A stretch of DNA of 64,000 nt from Escherichia coli (GCF_003018235.1 NZ_CP027437.1); one strand, 5' to 3'; counted from the stretch's first letter, positions 16,485 through 53,380 are shown. A program made the numbers and translations. Notes: a model not told the origin generated them from the letters alone.

Positions 16485-18212
16485 TTAGCAGATTGTTTTT
16501 TCTTCAATGAACTTGTTAACCAGCGTCATTAACTCGTCCGTTGTCGGTTGAGCAAGAGCCTGCTCTGCTAACACCTTCGCATCTTCGAAGTTCGTGTTAC
16601 GGATAATCTTCTTAATGCGCGGGATAGAAATGGCGCTCATAGAGAATTCGTCCAGACCCATCCCCAGCAACAGAAGTGTAGCACGTTCGTCGCCTGCAAG
16701 CTCACCACACATGCCAGTCCATTTGCCTTCAGCATGAGAAGCATCAATAACTTGCTTGATCAAGTTCAGCACGGACGGTGACATTGGCTGGTAAAGGTGT
16801 GAAATCATATCATTACCACGGTCAACTGCCAGAGTGTACTGCGTTAAATCATTGGTGCCGATACTAAAGAAATCAACTTCTTTGGCTAAATGACGTGCAA
16901 TTGTTGCGGCAGCCGGTGTTTCCACCATTACGCCGATTTCAATTGACTCGTCAAACGCTTTACCTTCGTCGCGCAGTTCCTGTTTGTAGATTTCGATCTC
17001 TTTGCGCAGTGCACGTACTTCTTCAACAGAGATGATCATCGGGAACATAATGCGCAATTTACCGAAAGCCGAGGCACGCAGGATAGCGCGGAGCTGATCG
17101 CGCAGGATCTCTTTACGATCCATTGCGATACGGATAGCGCGCCAGCCGAGGAACGGGTTCTCTTCTTTCGGGAAGTTCATGTATGGCAGCTCTTTGTCGC
17201 CGCCGATGTCCATGGTACGAACGATAACCGCCTGCGAGCCACACGCTTCAGCCACTGCTTTGTAAGCAGCAAACTGTTCTTCTTCAGTGGGCAGCGCGTC
17301 GCGGTCCATGAACAGGAACTCAGTACGATACAGACCAACGCCTTCAGCGCCGTTACGCTCTGCACCTTCAACGTCACGAACCGTACCAATGTTAGCGCAC
17401 ACTTCTACCTGGTGACCGTCCAGCGTAATAGCTGGCAGATCTTTCAGTTTAGCAAGCTCTGCTTTTTCAGAAGCCACTTGCTCCTGAACAGCGCGCATTT
17501 TATCAATAACTTCGTTGGTTGGATTGACGTAAACCTGATTATTTACGGCATCCAGAATCAGATAGTCGTCATTTTTCACCTGAGAGGTGACGCTACCGGT
17601 ACCCACGATAGCAGGCAGTTCCAGAGAACGCGCCATGATAGAGGTGTGGGAAGTACGGCCACCCGCGTCGGTGATGAAACCCAGCACCTTCTTCAGGTTC
17701 AGCTGTGCAGTTTCGGACGGTGTCAGGTCAGCGGCAACCAGAATGACTTCATCCTGAATGGCGCTCAGGTCGATAATCTTCAGGCCCAGGATGTTGCGCA
17801 GCAGGCGCTTACCGATATCACGTACGTCAGCCGCACGTTCTTTCAGGTATTCATCATCCAGCTCTTCCAGGGCAGAAGCCTGACCTTCGATAACTTCATG
17901 AGCAGCTGCGTCAGCTGTCATGTGCTTATCTTTAATCAGGGCTATGATTTCCTGCTCCAGCTCCTCATCTTCGAGCAGCATAATATGCCCTTCAAAGATG
18001 GCTTCTTTTTCTTCACCGAACGTTTCACCAGCTTTCGTTTTGATCGTTTCCAGCTGGGCTGATGCCTTGGCACGACCGCTCAGAAAACGTTCAACTTCCT
18101 GATCAACCTGGTCGGCAGAAATTTTTTTCCGGTCAATGACAATTTCGTCTTCTTTCAGAAGCAGAGCTTTACCGAAAGCGATACCCGGGGATGCTAAAAT
18201 GCCTGAAATCAT
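16485..18212 (-). CDS. ptsI: PTS enzyme I (phosphoenolpyruvate-protein phosphotransferase)
   Basis: 575-aa [22 protein letters not shown]... Confidence 0.97.
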
Positions 18213-42624: not shown

Positions 42625-43590
42625 ATGACAAAGTATGCATTAGTCGGTGATGTGGGCGGCACCAACGCACGTCTTGCTCTGTGTGATATTGCCAGTGGTG
42701 AAATCTCGCAGGCTAAGACCTATTCAGGGCTTGATTACCCCAGCCTCGAAGCGGTCATTCGCGTTTATCTTGAAGAACATAAGGTCGAGGTGAAAGACGG
42801 CTGTATTGCCATCGCTTGCCCAATTACCGGTGACTGGGTGGCAATGACCAACCATACCTGGGCGTTCTCAATTGCCGAAATGAAAAAGAATCTCGGTTTT
42901 AGCCATCTGGAAATTATTAACGATTTTACCGCTGTATCGATGGCGATCCCGATGCTGAAAAAAGAGCATCTGATTCAGTTTGGTGGCGCAGAACCGGTCG
43001 AAGGTAAGCCTATTGCGGTTTACGGTGCCGGAACGGGGCTTGGGGTTGCGCATCTGGTCCATGTCGATAAGCGTTGGGTAAGCTTGCCAGGCGAAGGCGG
43101 TCACGTTGATTTTGCGCCGAATAGTGAAGAAGAGGCCATTATCCTCGAAATACTGCGTGCAGAAATTGGTCATGTTTCGGCAGAGCGCGTGCTTTCTGGC
43201 CCTGGGCTGGTGAATTTGTATCGGGCAATTGTGAAAGCCGACAACCGCCTGCCAGAAAATCTCAAGCCAAAAGATATTACCGAACGCGCGCTGGCTGATA
43301 GCTGCACCGATTGCCGCCGCGCGTTGTCGCTGTTTTGCGTCATTATGGGACGTTTTGGCGGCAATCTGGCGCTCAATCTCGGGACATTTGGCGGCGTGTT
43401 TATTGCGGGCGGTATCGTGCCGCGCTTCCTTGAGTTCTTCAAAGCCTCCGGTTTCCGTGCCGCATTTGAAGATAAAGGGCGCTTTAAAGAATATGTCCAT
43501 GATATTCCGGTGTATCTCATCGTCCATGATAATCCGGGCCTTCTCGGTTCCGGTGCACATTTACGCCAGACCTTAGGTCACATTCTGTAA
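42625..43590 (+). CDS. glk: glucokinase
   Basis: 321-aa [24 protein letters not shown]... Confidence 0.96.
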
Positions 43591-43808
43591 ATCCTTCCTG
43601 TTATATCGGGAGATAACTCTCCCGATAATCTTTTAAATCATACAGTTAATTCAATTTTTCTTTGTGTCCCCTCACAAGGCCGACCTGCGTCACACTTCCG
43701 TACAGCGGGATTAATTCTCCAGTAAATGCATTATTTGTCTGGTAACGGCGATTTGTTTTGCACGTTCATAATTTCACTCGTCAACTATCACTGAACGAGG
43801 AATTAACG

Positions 43809-44135
43809 ATGAGTAAGAAACTGATTGCTTTATGTGCCTGCCCGATGGGTCTGGCTCACACCTTTATGGCCGCTCAGGCGCTGGAAGAAGCGGCGGTGGA
43901 AGCAGGCTATGAAGTGAAAATTGAAACTCAGGGCGCGGACGGCATCCAGAATCGCCTGACCGCGCAGGATATCGCCGAAGCGACCATCATCATCCACTCC
44001 GTGGCGGTTACCCCGGAAGATAACGAACGTTTCGAATCACGCGACGTTTATGAAATCACTTTGCAGGACGCAATTAAAAACGCTGCGGGCATCATCAAAG
44101 AAATCGAAGAGATGATTGCCTCTGAACAACAGTAA
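43809..44135 (+). CDS. fryB: PTS fructose-like EIIB component
   Basis: ORF track 43758..44135; ATG at 43809 gives 108 aa starting MSKKLIALCACPMG (EIIB Cys). Confidence 0.88.
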   Translation: MSKKLIALCACPMGLAHTFMAAQALEEAAVEAGYEVKIETQGADGIQNRLTAQDIAEATIIIHSVAVTPEDNERFESRDVYEITLQDAIKNAAGIIKEIEEMIASEQQ

Positions 44136-44156
44136 TATTCGACAGGGATAATTGTT

Positions 44157-45404
44157 ATGGCCATTAAAAAACGCAGTGCAACCGTTGTGCCTGGCGCATC
44201 CGGTGCGGCAGCGGCAGTTAAGAATCCGCAGGCCTCTAAAAGCAGCTTCTGGGGTGAACTCCCGCAGCATGTGATGTCAGGGATTTCACGCATGGTGCCG
44301 ACCTTAATTATGGGCGGTGTGATCCTCGCTTTCAGCCAGCTTATTGCTTATAGCTGGCTTAAAATTCCTGCTGATATCGGCATCATGGATGCTCTTAATA
44401 GCGGGAAATTCTCCGGTTTCGACCTTTCCTTACTGAAATTTGCCTGGCTGTCGCAGTCCTTCGGCGGCGTGTTGTTTGGTTTCGCCATTCCGATGTTTGC
44501 CGCTTTTGTGGCGAACTCTATCGGCGGCAAACTGGCGTTCCCGGCTGGTTTTATTGGCGGCTTGATGTCTACCCAGCCGACGCAACTGCTGAACTTCGAT
44601 CCCAGCACTATGCAATGGGCGACCTCTTCGCCGGTGCCGTCCACCTTCATTGGTGCGCTGATTATTTCTATCGTTGCTGGTTACCTTGTGAAATGGATGA
44701 ACCAGAAAATCCAGTTACCGGATTTCCTGTTAGCGTTCAAAACCACTTTTTTGCTACCGATTCTTTCCGCCATTTTTGTCATGCTGGCGATGTACTACGT
44801 CATTACCCCCTTTGGCGGCTGGATCAACGGCGGTATCCGTACCGTGCTGACTGCCGCAGGTGAGAAGGGCGCGCTAATGTATGCGATGGGGATCGCCGCG
44901 GCGACAGCAATCGACCTTGGTGGCCCGATCAACAAAGCCGCAGGTTTCGTTGCCTTCAGCTTTACCACGGACCACGTATTACCGGTCACCGCACGTTCTA
45001 TCGCTATCGTTATTCCGCCGATTGGTCTGGGTCTGGCGACCATTATTGACCGTCGTTTAACCGGCAAACGCCTGTTCAACGCTCAACTTTATCCGCAGGG
45101 TAAGACCGCGATGTTCCTGGCCTTTATGGGGATTAGTGAGGGTGCGATTCCGTTTGCGCTGGAAAGCCCCATCACCGCCATCCCGTCGTATATGGTCGGC
45201 GCGATTGTCGGCTCAACTGCAGCTGTCTGGCTGGGCGCAGTGCAATGGTTCCCGGAATCCGCTATCTGGGCATGGCCGCTGGTCACTAACCTGGGCGTCT
45301 ATATGGCGGGGATCGCGCTGGGGGCAGTCATTACTGCGCTGATGGTGGTGTTCCTGCGTCTGATGATGTTCCGTAAAGGCAAATTGTTAATCGATAGCCT
45401 GTAA
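44157..45404 (+). CDS. fryC: PTS fructose-like EIIC component
   Basis: 415-aa polytopic ORF. Confidence 0.9.
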
Positions 45405-45418
45405 GAAGGAAAATCCAG

Positions 45419-46504
45419 ATGACATTACTCGCTTCGCTGCGTGACTGGCTTAAGGCGCAACAACTGGATGCGGTGCTTCTCTCCTCACGGCAGAACAAAC
45501 AGCCGCATCTGGGGATCTCCAGCGGATCAGGCTATGTGGTGATTAGCCGTGAAAGTGCGCACATTCTGGTGGACTCGCGCTATTACGCGGATGTCGAAGC
45601 CCGCACGCAAGGTTACCAGCTACATTTGCTTGACGCGACGCACACGCTTGCAACCATCGTCAATAAAATCATTGCCGATGAGCAGTTGCAAACGCTCGGT
45701 TTTGAAGGCCAGCAGGTAAATTGGGAAACCGCGCACCGCTGGCAGTCTGAACTCAATGCGAAACTGGTAAGCGCCACGCCGGATGTGCTGCGGCAAATCA
45801 AAACGCCAGAGGAGGTGGAGAAAATCCGCCTCGCCTGTGGGATTGCCGATCGCGGAGCGGAGCATATTCGCCGCTTTATTCAGGCGGGGATGAGCGAATG
45901 CGAGATTGCTGCTGAACTGGAGTGGTTTATGCGCCAGCAGGGCGCAGAAAAAGCCTCTTTCGATACCATTGTCGCCAGTGGCTGGCGTGGGGCGCTGCCG
46001 CACGGCAAAGCCAGCGACAAGATTGTTGCAGCGGGCGAGTTTGTCACTCTCGATTTCGGTGCGCTGTATCAGGGTTACTGCTCTGATATGACGCGTACCT
46101 TGCTTGTGAATGGCGAAGGGGTGAGCGCCGAATTTCACCCGCTGTTTGACGTCTATCAGATTGTTTTGCAGGCACAGCTCGCAGCAATCTCCTCGATTCG
46201 CCCCGGCGTGCGCTGCCAGCAGGTTGACGACGCCGCGCGCCGGGTCATTACAGAAGCAGGTTATGGCGACTATTTCGGTCATAACACCGGTCATGCTATC
46301 GGTATTGAAGTCCATGAAGATCCGCGTTTTTCACCGCGGGACACCACGACGCTACAGCCAGGCATGTTACTGACCGTGGAGCCGGGGATTTATTTGCCAG
46401 GGCAAGGGGGCGTGCGCATCGAAGATGTTGTGCTGGTCACCCCGCAAGGCGCAGAAGTGCTCTACGCCATGCCGAAAACAGTGTTGCTCACGGGAGAGGC
46501 ATAA
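45419..46504 (+). CDS. ypdF: Xaa-Pro aminopeptidase (M24 family)
   Basis: 361-aa ORF inside the fry operon. Confidence 0.88.
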
Positions 46505-47541
46505 TGGATTTATCGTTATTAAAAGCGTTGAGCGAGGCAGATGCGATCGCCTCCTCGGAACAGGAAGTGCGGCAGATCCTGCTGGAAGAAGCGGATCGCC
46601 TGCAAAAAGAAGTGCGATTTGACGGCCTGGGATCGGTGCTGATCCGCCTCAATGAATCGACAGGTCCGAAGGTGATGATCTGTGCGCATATGGATGAAGT
46701 GGGATTTATTGTACGCAGCATCTCCCGCGAAGGGGCGATCGATGTGTTGCCGGTTGGCAATGTACGCATGGCTGCCCGCCAGCTTCAGTCGGTGCGTATC
46801 ACTACCCGTGAAGAGTGCAAAATTCCAGGCCTGCTTGACGGCGACCGGCAGGGGAATGACATCAGCGCCATGCGCGTGGACATTGGTGCGCGCTCGTATG
46901 ACGAAGTGATGCAGGCGGGAATTCGTCCAGGCGATCGCGTCACCTTTGATACAACTTTTCAGGTTCTCCCTCACCAGCGGGTGATGGGGAAAGCCTTTGA
47001 TGATCGCCTCGGTTGCTATCTGCTGGTGACGTTACTACGTGAGCTGCACGACGCCGAACTGCCTGCGGAGGTGTGGCTGGTGGCCAGCTCCAGCGAAGAG
47101 GTGGGATTACGCGGCGGGCAAACCGCTACCCGTGCGGTTTCACCGGACGTTGCGATTGTGCTGGATACCGCCTGCTGGGCGAAAAACTTTGATTATGGCG
47201 CGGCTAACCATCGCCAGATTGGTAACGGCCCGATGCTGGTATTAAGCGACAAGTCGCTGATTGCGCCGCCAAAACTTACCGCGTGGATTGAAACCGTGGC
47301 GGCAGAAATTGGCGTGCCGTTACAGGCAGATATGTTCAGCAACGGCGGCACGGACGGTGGAGCGGTGCATTTAACTGACACCGGCGTACCCACGGTGGTG
47401 ATGGGGCCAGCGACGCGCCACGGACATTGTGCGGCATCGATTGCCGATTGCCGCGACATTTTGCAGATGCAGCAACTTTTATCTGCCCTTATTCAACGTC
47501 TTACCCGTGAGACGGTTGTTCAACTGACGGATTTCAGATGA
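46504..47541 (+). CDS. ypdE: M42-family aminopeptidase
   Basis: 345-aa ORF; start overlaps ypdF stop. Confidence 0.88.
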
Positions 47542-47565
47542 TCTCCTGATTAACCCGGAGCGGTT

Positions 47566-50061
47566 ATGTTAACGATTCAATTTCTCTGTCCTTTGCCTAA
47601 CGGTATTCATGCTCGTCCGGCGTGGGAACTTAAAGAACAGTGCAGCCAGTGGCAAAGCGAAATCACTTTTATTAACCATCGCCAGAACGCAAAGGCCGAT
47701 GCGAAAAGTTCGCTGGCGCTGATTGGTACCGGCACTTTATTTAATGACAGTTGCAGCCTGAACATTAGCGGCAGCGATGAAGAGCAGGCGCGGCGCGTGC
47801 TGGAAGAGTACATCCAGGTGCGCTTTATCGACAGCGACAGCGTCCAGCCAACGCAGGCAGAACTGACGGCGCATCCGCTGCCGCGTTCATTAAGCCGTCT
47901 GAATCCTGATTTATTGTACGGCAATGTGCTGGCAAGCGGCGTCGGCGTGGGTACGCTGATCCTGTTACAGAGCGACAGCCTCGACAGTTACCGGGCGATC
48001 CCCGCCAGTGCGCAAGATTCCACCCGGCTGGAGCACAGCCTGGCAACGCTTGCCGAGCAACTGAACCAGCAGCTGCGTGAGCGTGACGGCGAAAGCAAAA
48101 CTATCCTCAGCGCCCATTTGTCGCTGATTCAGGATGATGAATTTGCAGGCAATATCCGTCGCCTTATGGCAGAACAGCATCAGGGACTGGGGGCGGCGAT
48201 CATCAGCAATATGGAGCAGGTTTGCGCCAAACTATCTGCTTCTGCCAGCGATTATCTGCGCGAGCGGGTCAGCGACATTCGCGATATCAGCGAACAGTTG
48301 CTGCATATCACCTGGCCGGAACTGAAGCCGCGCAACAATCTGGTGCTGGAAAAACCGACTATTCTGGTGGCCGAGGATTTAACCCCAAGCCAGTTTTTGA
48401 GCCTCGATTTAAAAAATCTTGCGGGCATGATTCTGGAGAAAACCGGGCGCACCTCGCATACCCTGATTCTGGCCCGCGCCTCGGCGATCCCGGTACTAAG
48501 TGGCTTGCCGCTGGATGCGATCGCGCGCTATGCCGGGCAACCGGCGGTGCTTGACGCCCAGTGCGGCGTGCTGGCGATTAATCCTGATGACGCGGTGAGC
48601 GGTTATTATCAGGTTGCGCAGACGCTGGCAGATAAACGTCAGCAGCAGCAGGCGCAGGCTGCCGCGCAGCTGGCCTATTCCCGTGATAACAAGCGCATTG
48701 ATATCGCGGCGAATATTGGCACCGCTCTGGAAGCGCCTGGCGCGTTTGCCAACGGCGCGGAAGGCGTCGGGCTGTTCCGTACCGAAATGCTCTATATGGA
48801 TCGCGACAGCGCGCCGGACGAGCAGGAGCAATTTGAAGCCTACCAGCAGGTGCTACTGGCAGCGGGCGACAAGCCGATTATCTTCCGCACAATGGACATC
48901 GGAGGCGATAAAAGCATTCCTTATCTGAATATTCCCCAGGAAGAGAACCCGTTCCTCGGCTATCGTGCGGTACGAATTTACCCGGAATTTGCTGGCCTGT
49001 TCCGCACTCAACTGCGGGCTATTTTGCGCGCCGCCAGTTTCGGCAACGCCCAGCTGATGATCCCGATGGTTCACAGCCTCGATCAGATCTTATGGGTGAA
49101 GGGTGAGATCCAAAAAGCGATCGTTGAGCTTAAACGCGATGGTCTGCGTCATGCAGAGACGATTACGCTGGGTATCATGGTGGAAGTGCCGTCGGTGTGC
49201 TACATCATCGATCACTTCTGCGATGAGGTCGATTTCTTCAGTATCGGTTCTAACGATATGACCCAGTATCTGTATGCGGTTGATCGTAATAACCCGCGCG
49301 TATCGCCGCTGTATAACCCGATTACGCCATCGTTCCTGCGCATGTTGCAGCAGATTGTTACCACTGCGCATCAGCGGGGTAAATGGGTAGGTATTTGCGG
49401 TGAACTGGGCGGTGAAAGCCGTTATCTGCCGCTACTGCTTGGGCTGGGCCTGGACGAGTTAAGTATGAGTAGCCCGCGCATTCCGGCGGTGAAAAGCCAG
49501 CTTCGTCAACTGGATAGCGAGGCGTGTCGGGAACTGGCGCGTCAGGCGTGTGAATGTCGCAGCGCGCAGGAGATTGAAGCGTTACTCACCGCCTTTACGC
49601 CGGAAGAAGACGTTCGCCCGCTGCTGGCGCTGGAGAATATCTTCGTTGATCAGGCCTTTAGCAATAAAGAGCAGGCGATCCAGTTCCTGTGCGGTAACCT
49701 CGGCGTTAACGGGCGCACTGAACATCCGTTCGAGCTGGAAGAGGATGTCTGGCAACGGGAAGAGATTGTTACCACCGGCGTTGGTTTTGGCGTAGCGATC
49801 CCGCACACCAAATCTCAGTGGATCCGTCATTCCAGTATCAGCATTGCCCGGCTGGTGAAACCGGTTGACTGGCAGTCAGAAATGGGCGAAGTCGAACTGG
49901 TGATCATGCTGACGCTGGGTGCTAACGAAGGGATGAACCATGTGAAAGTCTTCTCGCAGCTGGCGTGTAAACTGGTGAATAAAAACTTCCGCCAGTCGTT
50001 GTTTGCCGCGCAAGATGCACAAAGCATCCTGACGCTGCTGGAAACAGAATTAACCTTCTGA
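47566..50061 (+). CDS. fryA: PTS multiphosphoryl transfer protein (HPr-like, enzyme I-like and EIIA-Fru-like domains)
   Basis: 831-aa ORF; central part parallels PtsI (GGRTSHTLILARA, FRTEMLYMDR, MVEVP). Confidence 0.9.
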   Translation: MLTIQFLCPLPNGIHARPAWELKEQCSQWQSEITFINHRQNAKADAKSSLALIGTGTLFNDSCSLNISGSDEEQARRVLEEYIQVRFIDSDSVQPTQAELTAHPLPRSLSRLNPDLLYGNVLASGVGVGTLILLQSDSLDSYRAIPASAQDSTRLEHSLATLAEQLNQQLRERDGESKTILSAHLSLIQDDEFAGNIRRLMAEQHQGLGAAIISNMEQVCAKLSASASDYLRERVSDIRDISEQLLHITWPELKPRNNLVLEKPTILVAEDLTPSQFLSLDLKNLAGMILEKTGRTSHTLILARASAIPVLSGLPLDAIARYAGQPAVLDAQCGVLAINPDDAVSGYYQVAQTLADKRQQQQAQAAAQLAYSRDNKRIDIAANIGTALEAPGAFANGAEGVGLFRTEMLYMDRDSAPDEQEQFEAYQQVLLAAGDKPIIFRTMDIGGDKSIPYLNIPQEENPFLGYRAVRIYPEFAGLFRTQLRAILRAASFGNAQLMIPMVHSLDQILWVKGEIQKAIVELKRDGLRHAETITLGIMVEVPSVCYIIDHFCDEVDFFSIGSNDMTQYLYAVDRNNPRVSPLYNPITPSFLRMLQQIVTTAHQRGKWVGICGELGGESRYLPLLLGLGLDELSMSSPRIPAVKSQLRQLDSEACRELARQACECRSAQEIEALLTAFTPEEDVRPLLALENIFVDQAFSNKEQAIQFLCGNLGVNGRTEHPFELEEDVWQREEIVTTGVGFGVAIPHTKSQWIRHSSISIARLVKPVDWQSEMGEVELVIMLTLGANEGMNHVKVFSQLACKLVNKNFRQSLFAAQDAQSILTLLETELTF

Positions 50062-50063
50062 CG

Positions 50064-50921
50064 TTAGCCCTGAAAACGGGCGCTGTACTCTCCCGGCGTC
50101 AGACCAAACTGACGCCGGAAAACGCGACAAAAATAGTCGCTATCCGGAAAACCGCAACGCTGTGCCACTTCATGAATTGACAGATGATATTTCTGCAAAA
50201 TCATCCTCGCCTTCGCCATTCGCACCCAACGCACATACTCGATAAAACGCATCGTTCCATGCTGAGCAAACAGTTTTGACAGATGATTGGGCGTGATATT
50301 AAAAAACTGCGCCACGCTCTCGCGGGTGAGCGGCTGGGCATAATTATCCTGAACCCAGTTACAAATGCTGTGATAGAGAAAATCGCTGCGCGGCTGCGAA
50401 TTGCCCGGTGGCATATTCACCACGTTGCGGCAAAGATGCAGCAAACTTAACACCAGTGGCTGAATGATATTCTGCTCCAGCGGTGAACGGCTAAGATGGG
50501 TGAGGGCAGTAAGCATTGCTTCACCTTCGCCGCGTTGCAGGCTGGGAAGCTGGATCTGGCGAGCAGGATGCAACAACGACGTGGTACGGCTATCGTAAAA
50601 CGATAACCCAAGCCAGGTCGGTGCGAACACCAGGCTTAACAGCATCACCGGTTTGTTGTTGATCGGTAAATTAGCCGCGCGCGCTGGAATAAACAGCATT
50701 TCTCCTTCAACCATACGTTGCTGCTTTGCTTCCAGCAGATTGCCGTATTCGCCGCGCAGCACGATATCCAGACGGGGAAAATCAATACATAAACTGCCCA
50801 CCGGTAACGAGGCAGGCTGGCTGGCAAACCAGACGCGCCCCAGTAGTTGCGGGTTAAGCACCAGGCCGCTGAACAGATCGGCGAAAAATTGTTGATCGGC
50901 GGGCAAGCCTGGTGCTTTCAT
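50064..50921 (-). CDS. ypdC: AraC-family transcriptional regulator
   Basis: 285-aa ORF with C-terminal AraC HTH. Confidence 0.85.
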   Translation of the reverse strand: MKAPGLPADQQFFADLFSGLVLNPQLLGRVWFASQPASLPVGSLCIDFPRLDIVLRGEYGNLLEAKQQRMVEGEMLFIPARAANLPINNKPVMLLSLVFAPTWLGLSFYDSRTTSLLHPARQIQLPSLQRGEGEAMLTALTHLSRSPLEQNIIQPLVLSLLHLCRNVVNMPPGNSQPRSDFLYHSICNWVQDNYAQPLTRESVAQFFNITPNHLSKLFAQHGTMRFIEYVRWVRMAKARMILQKYHLSIHEVAQRCGFPDSDYFCRVFRRQFGLTPGEYSARFQG

Positions 50922-50933
50922 GAAAGTTCCCGA

Positions 50934-51668
50934 TTAAAGATGCATTAACTGGCGGAATTCTTTAACTTTGCTGCGGCTGACTGGCACTTCAAAATCCAGA
51001 TCTTTCAGCCGCAGAATGTAGGTGTTATTAAACCACGGTTCGATCTCGCGGATTTTGTTCAGATTGACACAAAATGAGCGATGGCAGCGGAAAAAATGCG
51101 ACGGCGGCAGCTTGCTGCAAAACTCGGTAATGTTCATCGGCATTACGTAGGATTCACGCCGCGTATAGACAAAGGTCATTTTCTCATGCGCTTCGGCGTA
51201 ATAGATATCGTTAATTGGCGTGACGATGATTCGCTCATCTTTCACCAGATTAATGGTGTCATTCTCACGCGTTACCGTCGTGGCAGGCGTACTGCTGGTC
51301 TGCTGTTGTTGCCAGGCTGCTTCCAGTTTTTGTAGCATCCCGGTAATGCGTGACTCCTGATACGGTTTGAGAATGTAGTCAAACGCCTCCAGTTCAAACG
51401 CTTCTACCGCATGTTCTTTCCATGCGGTGATAAACACAATAAACGGTTTATGGGCGAACTGGCTGATGTTTTGCGCCAGCAACACACCGTCCAGCGACGG
51501 AATATTGATATCCAGAAAAATGGCGTCGACGCGGTTATGCTGCAAAAACTTCAACACGTCCAGACCGTCGTCAAAGGTGCCGACAATCTCCATCTGGCTG
51601 TGCTCTTTAATTAGCCAGCTCAGTTCCTGTTGTGCCAGGAATTCGTCTTCAACAATGATGACTTTCAC
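50934..51668 (-). CDS. ypdB: LytTR-family response regulator
   Basis: ORF track 50934..51686; GTG at 51668 gives 244 aa (VKVIIVEDEFLAQQ); receiver domain with LytTR C-terminus. Confidence 0.85.
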   Translation of the reverse strand: MKVIIVEDEFLAQQELSWLIKEHSQMEIVGTFDDGLDVLKFLQHNRVDAIFLDINIPSLDGVLLAQNISQFAHKPFIVFITAWKEHAVEAFELEAFDYILKPYQESRITGMLQKLEAAWQQQQTSSTPATTVTRENDTINLVKDERIIVTPINDIYYAEAHEKMTFVYTRRESYVMPMNITEFCSKLPPSHFFRCHRSFCVNLNKIREIEPWFNNTYILRLKDLDFEVPVSRSKVKEFRQLMHL

Positions 51669-51682
51669 AATATCACTCCGGC

Positions 51683-53380
51683 TCAAAGCAATAACGTAGC
51701 CTGTGAGGCGACTGGGGTGCGTTGGTTAGGAATGTAAAACGCAATTTCCGTCCCCGGTTCCAGGCGGCGGATATGCAGCCCCTCGCCATACAATAACTTC
51801 ACGCGATGATGGACATTCAGCAGGCCAATTTTATTGCCCGGCATTTCGTTCGCTTCGACCCGCTCAATCACCTTTGGATCGATGCCGTGCCCGGTATCTC
51901 GCACCGCAATACGTACCCGATTACCGCACTCTGCAACGCTGATGGTGACAACGCCTTTACCTTTGCAAGGCTGGATACCGTGGACAATGGCGTTTTCCAC
52001 CAACGGCTGGATCAGCAGGCTGGGAATGCAGCAATTCACCTCTTCATCAATATCATAGATAACCGTCAGCTTGTCGCCAAAGCGGGCCTGCTCAATGGCA
52101 ATATAGTCTTTAATTTGATACAGCTCTTTTTTGATATCGATTTGCTCATCGTCTTTTAATTCAATGTTATAGCGCAGATAACGCGACAGATTAAAGATCA
52201 GCTGGCGAGCGGTATCCGGATTCAGACGGATTGACGATGAAATAGCGTTCAAAGCGTTAAACAGGAAATGGGGATTAATTTTGCTTTGCAGGGCGCGAAG
52301 CTCTGCCTTATTTGCCATTTCACGTAGCTGCTCGGCGCGTGAAACCTCCAGTTGCGTGGAGATGATTTGCGACAGACCGACCGCCATTTCCTGTAATGAT
52401 GACGTAATCTGATGCGCGTGGCAGTAGTAAATTTTCAGTGTTCCGGTCACAACGCCTTTCTCCCACAATGGGATCACCAGCATGGAATGAATCTCTGGTG
52501 TGCGGTGGGCTTCATCATTGTTTTTAATGATGATTTTTCCGTAATTCATCGCCTGTCGGGTAGTCGGGCTAATGAAGTCATCGCCATTCTGATAGTTGTG
52601 TTCACCCACGCCAACATAGGCCAGCACATGATCGGTATTGGTAATCGCCACCGCATCGGCATGAATATCATCGCGGATAATTTCACAAACTTTGCGTAAT
52701 GACTCGCTATTGACATGGCGAAACAGCGGCAGCGTTTTGTTGGCGATATCCAGCGCCAGCTTGGCCTGCCGCGCGGCGCTGGCCTCTTTTTCGCCCTCAA
52801 CGCTTTGCACCAGCAGCACAATAAAGCCGATACAGACGCTACCGAGGATCATCGGAATCCCGATTTTAGAGACGATATCGATCCCCAACGCGGTAGTTGG
52901 TGCCCAGACAATCACCAGAATCATGGTCAACGTTTCACATAACATGCCGCCGAGAATACCGACGCGCCAGCGCTGTGCTTTGGGGATTTTCAGGTTGATC
53001 CAGCCCGATATACAACCCGCCAGAATGCTGGTGATAAAGCAGGGGATCGCCGTCACGCCGCCGATATCAATTAAATACCGGTGAATACCCGCAATCACGC
53101 CGGTAATGATGCCTACCCACGGGCCAAACAGAATCCCGCCTGACATCACCGCGATAATACGAACGTTCACTAGCGAGCCTTCTACGGGAACGCCGGACCA
53201 GGTGCTGAACAGGGCGAACAGCGAGAAAATGGCGGTAACAGCGAGCAGCTCTTTTGGGGAGTGCGCCGACTTGTGCAACAGTTCGCGAAACAGGCGGATA
53301 CGGATGAGAAAGAACAGGCAGATAAGCATTAACGCTGCCCGATCGAAGACCGCCAGCAGCATGTTGAATATTTCGTGCAC
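51683..53380 (-). CDS. ypdA: LytS-type sensor histidine kinase
   Basis: 565-aa ORF, membrane N-terminus and His-kinase C-terminus. Confidence 0.88.

Follow-up and report, generated by a model that had tools for sequence, protein, structure and literature searches.

Conserved linkage of a fructose-family phosphotransferase system, two metallo-aminopeptidases and the regulator gene ypdC in the fry locus of Escherichia coli

The fry locus of Escherichia coli, in which genes for a fructose-type phosphotransferase system (PTS) enclose two aminopeptidase genes, was analyzed in a stretch of 64,000 nucleotides (nt) from one E. coli genome (NZ_CP027437.1), hereafter called the window. Five intact open reading frames (ORFs) on the plus strand, each starting with ATG and containing zero internal stops, fill positions 43809-50061. 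They correspond to fryB (43809-44135), encoding a fructose-type enzyme IIB (EIIB) of 108 amino acids; fryC (44157-45404), an EIIC permease of 415 amino acids from a divergent clade of the fructose family; ypdF (45419-46504), an M24B aminopeptidase of the Xaa-Pro type with 361 amino acids; ypdE (46504-47541), a TET-type M42 aminopeptidase of 345 amino acids; and fryA (47566-50061), a multiphosphoryl transfer protein of 831 amino acids. Successive genes are spaced by 21, 14, -1 and 24 nt, the ypdE start codon sharing one nucleotide with the ypdF stop (TAATG), and a Shine-Dalgarno-like motif lies before every start. This spacing, taken with a published table of the CpxR regulon that lists fryBC ypdF ypdE fryA as a single unit (PMC2731931), is consistent with co-transcription from fryB to fryA. 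The locus contains one conserved promoter-like block, and three weak terminator-like sites occur within genes on the plus strand, their total count not exceeding that of shuffled sequence.

The locus is the known and already annotated fryBC-ypdFE-fryA operon of Escherichia. In RefSeq, an E. coli stretch of 98.4% identity is annotated as fryB, fryC, ypdF, ypdE, ptsP/fryA, ypdC, ypdB and ypdA, and E. coli K-12 carries the same genes (b2387-b2383 for fry and b2382 for ypdC) in the same order, with the same lengths and the same neighbors, namely glk upstream and ypdCBA downstream. The gene identities, order and boundaries proposed in the initial annotation, which had been made from the sequence alone, agree with the ORF coordinates to the nucleotide and with both Pfam and RefSeq names. 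Because the locus was already annotated, that finding as written adds nothing new: it is a textbook annotation, correctly re-identified. Of the 5426 complete E. coli genomes searched, 5415 contain at least 80% of the locus, which places fry in the E. coli core genome.

All Pfam matches of the five gene products lie above the curated cut-offs. FryA had been described as an 831-residue fusion whose central portion parallels PtsI, and this description holds, since the domain search found all three expected modules: PTS-HPr (residues 6-84), the enzyme I (EI) domains PEP-utilisers_N, PEP-utilizers and PEP-utilizers_C (residues 119-650) and PTS_EIIA_2 (residues 687-826). On the plus strand, the HPr module spans nt 47581-47817, with His15 as its phosphorylation residue; the EI module spans nt 47914-49614, with His298 and Cys611; and the fructose-type EIIA module spans nt 49624-50043, with His747. 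The HPr module belongs to its family (PF00381, 53.3 bits against a cut-off of 23), its His15 lies in NGIHARPA, and it is 32% identical to the HPr encoded in the same window. The EI module passes PF05524, PF00391 and PF02896 as well as TIGR01417 (505.7 bits against 341.7). Residues 117-683 of FryA align with residues 1-574 of PtsI, whose gene also lies in the window (16485-18212, minus strand), at 39% identity (E-value 4e-132), and in this alignment FryA His298 (GRTSH) and Cys611 (CGEL) coincide with His189 and Cys502 of PtsI, the two motifs being common to both proteins. The EIIA module exceeds the cut-offs of PF00359 (107 against 27 bits) and TIGR00848 (138.8 against 103.5), and from its motif, AIPHT, we take His747 to be the active EIIA histidine.

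FryB is assigned to the EIIB family by PF02302 (70.6 bits against 23.6) and TIGR00829 (92.2 against 76.85), with its phosphorylatable Cys11 in the motif CPMGLAHT. FryC passes PF02378 (51.8 bits against 30.7), scores just under the cut-off of the fructose-specific TIGR01427 (157.5 against 157.55) and, in the NCBIfam search, reaches none of the E. coli equivalog models; its clade is small, with 54 clusters at E-values of 1e-30 or better among 1.84 billion representative proteins. At the level of sequence, the phosphorelay from phosphoenolpyruvate (PEP) through EI, HPr, EIIA and EIIB to EIIC is complete, with all its residues intact. As of 2017, fryA had no assigned function and the substrate of FryABC was not known; a 48-bp in-frame deletion in fryA raises fitness after prolonged growth in peptide-rich LB medium (PMC5364489).

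The two enzymes encoded between the permease and FryA are, by their sequences, catalytically intact metallo-aminopeptidases. YpdF combines the Pfam domains Creatinase_N and Peptidase_M24, matches the structure deposited as ‘Aminopeptidase YpdF’ (PDB 5CNX, E-value 2e-232) and scores 807 bits against a cut-off of 393 for the equivalog NF007310. About 3% of its residues are not the same as in the 5CNX sequence, which derives from K-12, and no functional difference between the locus in the window and that of K-12 is apparent. The motifs that hold its metal ligands D212, D223, H292, E321 and E335 are the same as in the prolidase 1PV9. YpdE, a Peptidase_M42 protein in Pfam, matches PDB 1YLO (E-value 7e-223) and belongs to the equivalog NF007421 (677.5 bits against 412); its metal-ligand motifs, HMD (H62), FDDR (D166/167), EE (198/199), D221 and H308, align with those of PhTET2 (1Y0R) and 1YLO. 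The aminopeptidase activity of YpdE has been characterized, according to PMC3511314, which cites Zheng et al. 2005; PMC3511314 also counts three M42 enzymes of unclear role in E. coli and mentions a dodecameric state of YpdE as unpublished data. In the mouse bladder, a ypdE mutant of the uropathogenic E. coli (UPEC) strain UTI89 is outcompeted, with a competitive index of 0.30 (PMC8767336).

To examine how far the association of these genes is conserved, we scanned one genome per GTDB species with an alignment of FryC and kept 80 loci; enterobacterial counts refer to the 31 species loci with a full-length FryA. The order fryB-fryC-M24-M42-fryA is retained in 30 of the 31, in several different chromosomal contexts. 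The gene ypdC (50064-50921, minus strand), which encodes a regulator of the AraC/XylS family (Pfam HTH_18 and HTH_AraC), lies convergent to fryA and within 2 kb of it in 28 loci with varied neighborhoods, and upstream instead of convergent in one further locus. The next genes in the window, ypdB for a LytTR response regulator and ypdA for a LytS-type kinase by their Pfam domains (together 50934-53380, minus strand), behave differently: ypdA stands beside fry in only 11 of the 31 loci, from Escherichia, Citrobacter and Pseudocitrobacter, whereas Pseudenterobacter and one JGI enterobacterial genome keep fryB-fryC-M24-M42-fryA and the convergent AraC gene in other neighborhoods without ypdAB. As judged from gene order, the conserved enterobacterial unit is fryB-fryC-M24-M42-fryA plus ypdC. 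Given linkage in 28 against 11 of the 31 loci in changing neighborhoods, ypdC belongs with fry and ypdAB are mere neighbors, probably not part of the fry system. The adjacency of a ypdCBA group to the operon, pointed out in the initial annotation, is real, but the comparison splits the group, which was treated there as one unit. A role of ypdAB as the cognate fry regulators was considered and rejected on the same linkage count. The target of YpdA/YpdB is yhjX. The pair is described as a pyruvate-responsive two-component system (PMC5552118).

Compared with Citrobacter, Salmonella and Enterobacter, the ratio of nonsynonymous to synonymous substitution rates (dN/dS) ranges from 0.01 to 0.15 across all five fry genes and from 0.01 to 0.05 for fryB and fryC, the most constrained of them. 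All five genes are under strong purifying selection, and the locus is not decaying. In two lineages a protein matches in two pieces, YpdE in Escherichia sp. MOD1-EC7003 (locus L016, 12348-13300) and FryA in Citrobacter amalonaticus S646 (locus L024, 13411-15893), which suggests frameshifts and lineage-specific inactivation.

Beyond the enteric bacteria, 44 loci from Clostridia, Erysipelotrichia, Negativicutes, Fusobacteria, Streptococcus suis and Rahnella carry EIICs of the FryC clade that are 50-67% identical to FryC. The gene directly downstream of the EIIC gene, at 8-201 nt, encodes a YpdF-like M24 peptidase in 27 loci and a GH38 alpha-mannosidase in the other 17, with none of the 44 having both and none having neither. 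A second peptidase of clan MH accompanies the first in 26 of the 27 M24 loci, being a YpdE-like M42 enzyme in 15 and an M20 enzyme of the PepV/Sapep type in 11; a C-S lyase of the PatB family, scoring at or just under the TIGR04350 cut-off, is present in 23 of these 27. A regulator of the PRD/Mga type and a separate EIIA occur in 36 of the 44 loci. Clustering of all flanking ORFs of the 44 loci yielded no other conserved enzyme besides the regulator, EIIA/B/C, M24, M42/M20, PatB and GH38. The M24 and M42 proteins of Clostridia share 40-48% identity with YpdF and YpdE, whose NCBIfam models are also their best matches, and a neighbor-joining tree of the permeases places the clostridial clade with M24, M42 and PatB as the sister group of the enteric FryC clade. 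Enteric fry operons lack the PatB lyase, with the exception of locus L047, from a metagenome-assembled genome of Enterobacterales, which reads ypdC-fryB-fryC-M24-M42-fryA-PatB. On an independent metagenomic contig (L010 313-7936, Logan SRR30067240), a FryC-like IIABC fusion, 54% identical to FryC, lies together with genes for RidA, an AlaDH-like protein, RpiR, an M24 peptidase, a truncated PepV-like M20 peptidase and a PatB-like enzyme dependent on pyridoxal phosphate; amino-acid deamination genes beside a PTS would be in keeping with a substrate that contains an amino acid.

A functional parallel to the proposed logic is offered by the MngA/MngB system for 2-O-alpha-mannosyl-D-glycerate, where a PTS of the fructose family imports and phosphorylates a sugar conjugate, which the GH38 enzyme encoded by the next gene then splits; the GH38 proteins encoded beside FryC-clade permeases are 30% identical to MngB and hint, by analogy, at a mannose-like sugar. 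At 27% identity, however, MngA resembles FryC no more than FrwC and FrvB do. An assignment of fry itself as a MngAB-type system was rejected, as FryC scores 102 bits against the MngA cut-off of 763 and the operon in the window has no GH38 gene.

Within E. coli, the frw locus (ptsA/frwA, frwCBD, pflDC and yijO; K-12 4136000-4150000) has a similar architecture. Its PtsA is an HPr-EI-EIIA fusion like FryA and 45% identical to it over the full length, FrwB is 46% identical to FryB, and its AraC-type regulator YijO, 35% identical to YpdC, is likewise convergent at the end of the PTS genes. FrwC, in contrast, is merely 29% identical to FryC, and the cargo of frw consists of a pyruvate formate-lyase-like enzyme with its activase, FsaB and GldA, where that of fry consists of peptidases. 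The cryptic PTS operons frvABXR (K-12 4084000-4096000) and sgcXBCQAER (K-12 4522000-4534000) each include an M42 enzyme, FrvX (34% identical to YpdE) and SgcX (31%), so that all three E. coli M42 paralogs are placed in cryptic PTS operons. Unlike fry, both operons lack an M24 partner and a dedicated EI/HPr and have their own regulators, FrvR and SgcR; sgc further differs in being a PTS of the galactitol type. E. coli keeps several ‘fructose-like’ PTS operons, with all three of its M42 peptidases among them. Outside PTS operons, a PepV-type dipeptidase and PatB form a known staphylococcal route for Cys-Gly-S-conjugates (PMC11742315), and the non-enteric fry-like cassettes similarly combine an M20 or M42 peptidase with a PatB-family lyase. 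The staphylococcal pathway relies on a peptide transporter and its genes are unclustered, whereas the operon in the window has a PTS and no PatB.

The region upstream of fryB was analyzed by aligning the 200 nt preceding the gene in 16 enterobacterial loci with different upstream genes, of which approximately 100 nt are conserved. The predicted -10 hexamer, CATAAT (43767-43772, plus strand), was located in this cross-locus alignment and reads CATAAT or CATACT in 16 of 16 loci, with positions 1-4 and 6 invariant. Upstream of fryB no good -35 is present at 17 nt from the hexamer, and a generic sigma-70 scan returned no full promoter there, as would be expected if the promoter depends on an activator. 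Two adjacent 20-nt direct repeats on the plus strand, ATTAATTCTCCAGTAAATGC (43710-43729) and ATTATTTGTCTGGTAACGGC (43730-43749), share the pattern TCCrG..AA, which is conserved with its 20-nt period across genera. We propose that these repeats, at about -69 to -30, are tandem half-sites for YpdC, and that ypdC encodes the cognate regulator of the fry promoter. Further upstream lies a CRP-like site, GCCGA-N6-TCACA (43679-43694, plus strand), centered at about -92.5 from the predicted start; its right half, TCACA(C/T)TT, and the GA of its left half are conserved across the 16 loci, and a perfect TGTGA left half occurs in Serratia and in locus L006. A role for CRP may be inferred from this conservation, weakly so in the present genome.

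The araBAD and rhaBAD promoters share the layout of tandem repeats, a weak -35 and a CRP site further upstream, and by analogy the block before fryB resembles an activator-dependent promoter of this type. YpdC is an uncharacterized AraC-type factor with zero peaks under laboratory conditions in chromatin immunoprecipitation with exonuclease digestion (ChIP-exo; PMC8464067); a promoter that needs both activator and inducer would explain this empty result as well as the cryptic behavior of the operon. The same region contains an 11-nt imperfect inverted repeat (43758-43768 and 43792-43802, 82% complementary) that overlaps the predicted -10 and the Shine-Dalgarno region of fryB; it is probably irrelevant, since its first arm would not be transcribed from a start near 43779.

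With modest confidence, we favor the view that the fry operon encodes a self-contained PTS of the fructose family that imports a conjugate of a sugar with an amino acid or peptide, that YpdF and YpdE trim this conjugate, and that YpdC controls the system, ypdAB being neighbors only. A conjugate is the most likely substrate because peptidases hold the position of the glycosidase in the sister operons and no other conserved enzyme accompanies them; the peptidases appear functionally tied to the transporter, processing what it imports. In this scheme, phosphate would pass from PEP to FryA His298, then to His15, His747 and FryB Cys11, and finally to the substrate moved by FryC. The imported and phosphorylated molecule would not be a plain sugar but one to which an amino acid or short peptide is attached. 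Its amino-acid part would be stripped off in the cytoplasm by YpdF, the M24 enzyme of the Xaa-Pro type, and YpdE, the broad M42 aminopeptidase, which would thereby play the role held by the GH38 glycosidase in the sister operons. The conjugate could be an O- or S-glycosyl Ser/Thr/Cys peptide or an aminoacyl-amino sugar; where PatB is present, beta-elimination on a Cys (or Ser) conjugate is plausible. Transcription would need YpdC and its inducer, starting at a promoter whose -10 is good and whose -35 is poor and which has two tandem half-sites of the AraC type and, upstream, a CRP-like site; this need would account for the silence of the operon in the laboratory.

More tentatively, and as a possibility to which we would not give even chances, the FryC-clade PTS together with M24 and M42/M20 peptidases, and often PatB, may constitute an undescribed pathway of conjugate catabolism present in Enterobacteriaceae, Clostridia, Negativicutes and others, in which the peptidases, and the lyase where present, would replace a glycoside hydrolase and YpdC would serve as the enteric inducer sensor. 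If true, this would also explain why every E. coli M42 peptidase lies in a PTS operon. The initial annotation had called the combination of a sugar PTS with peptidases functionally unexplained, which matches the literature: among the papers searched, with incomplete coverage, we found neither a described system of PTS, peptidase and PatB nor an account of the linkage of PTS and peptidases. To the known annotation the comparison adds a cassette pattern common across phyla, a promoter model in concrete terms and the assignment of ypdC, instead of ypdAB, to the system. It also yields testable predictions, namely that peptidases stand in the place of a glycosidase, that the cassette comprises PTS, M24 and M42/M20 (plus PatB), and that the likely regulator is YpdC and not YpdAB, with a defined site of 40 nt as its target. 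If confirmed, the conjugate would represent a new substrate class for the PTS and would account for an operon that is part of the core genome and has an effect on the fitness of UPEC in the bladder (PMC8767336).

Several points weigh against the import of a conjugate under YpdC control. YpdE and YpdF both hydrolyze ordinary peptides in vitro, and a special substrate is therefore not needed to explain their activity. No PTS permease is known to carry peptide conjugates. The absence of PatB from most enteric operons is a weakness for an O- or S-linked substrate, as it leaves the step that would free the sugar unaccounted for in E. coli. Regarding the promoter, the two repeat copies are 70% alike within the window, which is why a repeat finder run on the fryB upstream region did not call them; they are visible through cross-genus conservation alone. 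The CRP-like site has three mismatches to TGTGA-N6-TCACA, patterns of the CRP consensus are not enriched in the window, and the transcription start near 43779 is itself predicted.

The alternative that survives best, though we regard it as unlikely, is that there is no coupling: FryABC would take up a fructose-like sugar of an ordinary kind, and the two aminopeptidases would be housekeeping enzymes that are in the operon by chance. Their canonical catalytic motifs, their action on ordinary peptides in vitro, the characterized activity of YpdE (PMC3511314, citing Zheng et al. 2005) and the many redundant peptidases of E. coli would all suit it. It does not account for an adjacency of PTS and peptidase genes held across phyla at 40-48% protein identity, nor for the mutual exclusion of M24 and GH38 (27 and 17 loci, overlap zero). 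Moreover, the second peptidase is not lost but swapped for an analog from its own clan (M42 or M20), the coding regions of ypdF and ypdE share 1 nt, and three of three E. coli M42 genes lie within PTS operons.

Quite unlikely in our estimate is that the ‘peptidases’ hydrolyze a small non-peptide molecule, for instance an amide or ester of a sugar phosphate, and no standard peptide bond. The M24 and M42 families do include small-molecule amidohydrolases, M42 proteins were long annotated as glucanases (PMC3511314), and weaker NCBIfam matches lead to the ectoine hydrolase DoeA and to the M42 protein of the NAGGN system. The best family matches of both enzymes, however, are aminopeptidase equivalogs, far over their cut-offs; aminopeptidase activity is reported for YpdE (PMC3511314, citing Zheng et al. 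2005), and the joint occurrence of a PepV-type dipeptidase and the cysteine-conjugate lyase PatB speaks for chemistry on alpha-amino acids, like that of the Cys-Gly-conjugate pathway (PMC11742315). Were the amide to link an amino sugar with an amino acid, this alternative would overlap with import of a sugar-amino acid conjugate.

A sensory or regulatory phosphorelay, in which FryA, as an EI paralog like PtsP, reports PEP/pyruvate or nitrogen status and modulates peptide use with FryBC as the sensor, is in our view distinctly improbable. E. coli does possess other regulatory EI paralogs, and FryA duplicates general PTS proteins already encoded in the window; in addition, the in-frame fryA deletion alters fitness in LB (PMC5364489) and ypdAB, described as pyruvate-sensing (PMC5552118), adjoin fry in Escherichia. 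Against this, FryB and FryC are the most constrained proteins of the operon (dN/dS 0.01-0.05), the clostridial relatives lack a dedicated EI and, with their PRD regulators, resemble ordinary PTS operons for catabolism, a catabolic role is clear for the sister operons with GH38, and the linkage to ypdAB is not conserved. Finally, an evolutionary remnant drifting to loss, which the lack of a known laboratory phenotype or inducer and the damage in some lineages (YpdE split in L016, FryA split in L024, FryC-YpdF fusion ORFs in some E. coli) might suggest, is scarcely credible given five intact ORFs under strong purifying selection, a conserved promoter block, presence in 5415 of 5426 complete genomes and the reduced fitness of a ypdE mutant in vivo (PMC8767336).

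At its upstream side, the operon follows glk (42625-43590), directly after whose stop a strong terminator-like hairpin (43604-43627, plus strand; 10-bp stem with 5 GC pairs and a T-rich tail) forms the boundary of the fry unit. At the other end, the convergent ypdC gene ends 2 nt past the fryA stop, and a scan of the window for terminator-like hairpins found none between the two genes. Stops 2 nt apart in convergent genes with no hairpin between them, together with short gaps elsewhere, make it probable that the fryA and ypdC transcripts overlap at their 3’ ends; in other genera gaps of about 10 nt recur between the two genes (junctions in L027, L032, L039 and others). An Rfam scan of 43400-51000 gave zero RNA families.

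Some E. coli assemblies contain proteins of 653-688 amino acids in which the FryC EIIC domain is fused to an M24 domain (P0081, P0082 and P0111), and in one (P0085) it is joined to an M42 domain; such proteins look like fusions produced by read-through or by deletion at the small gap that separates fryC from ypdF. None of the 5426 complete E. coli genomes is identical to the window, the best identity being 98.4% at fry and 98.9% over the first 25 kb. Escherichia sp. E1V33 (L013) has a FryC with 100% identity to that of the window, the remaining proteins being 96-99% identical, and the synonymous divergence (dS) from the GTDB representative labeled E. coli SCPM-O-B-8794 is about 0.3. The lineage of the window is an Escherichia standing somewhat apart from the sequenced E. 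coli set.

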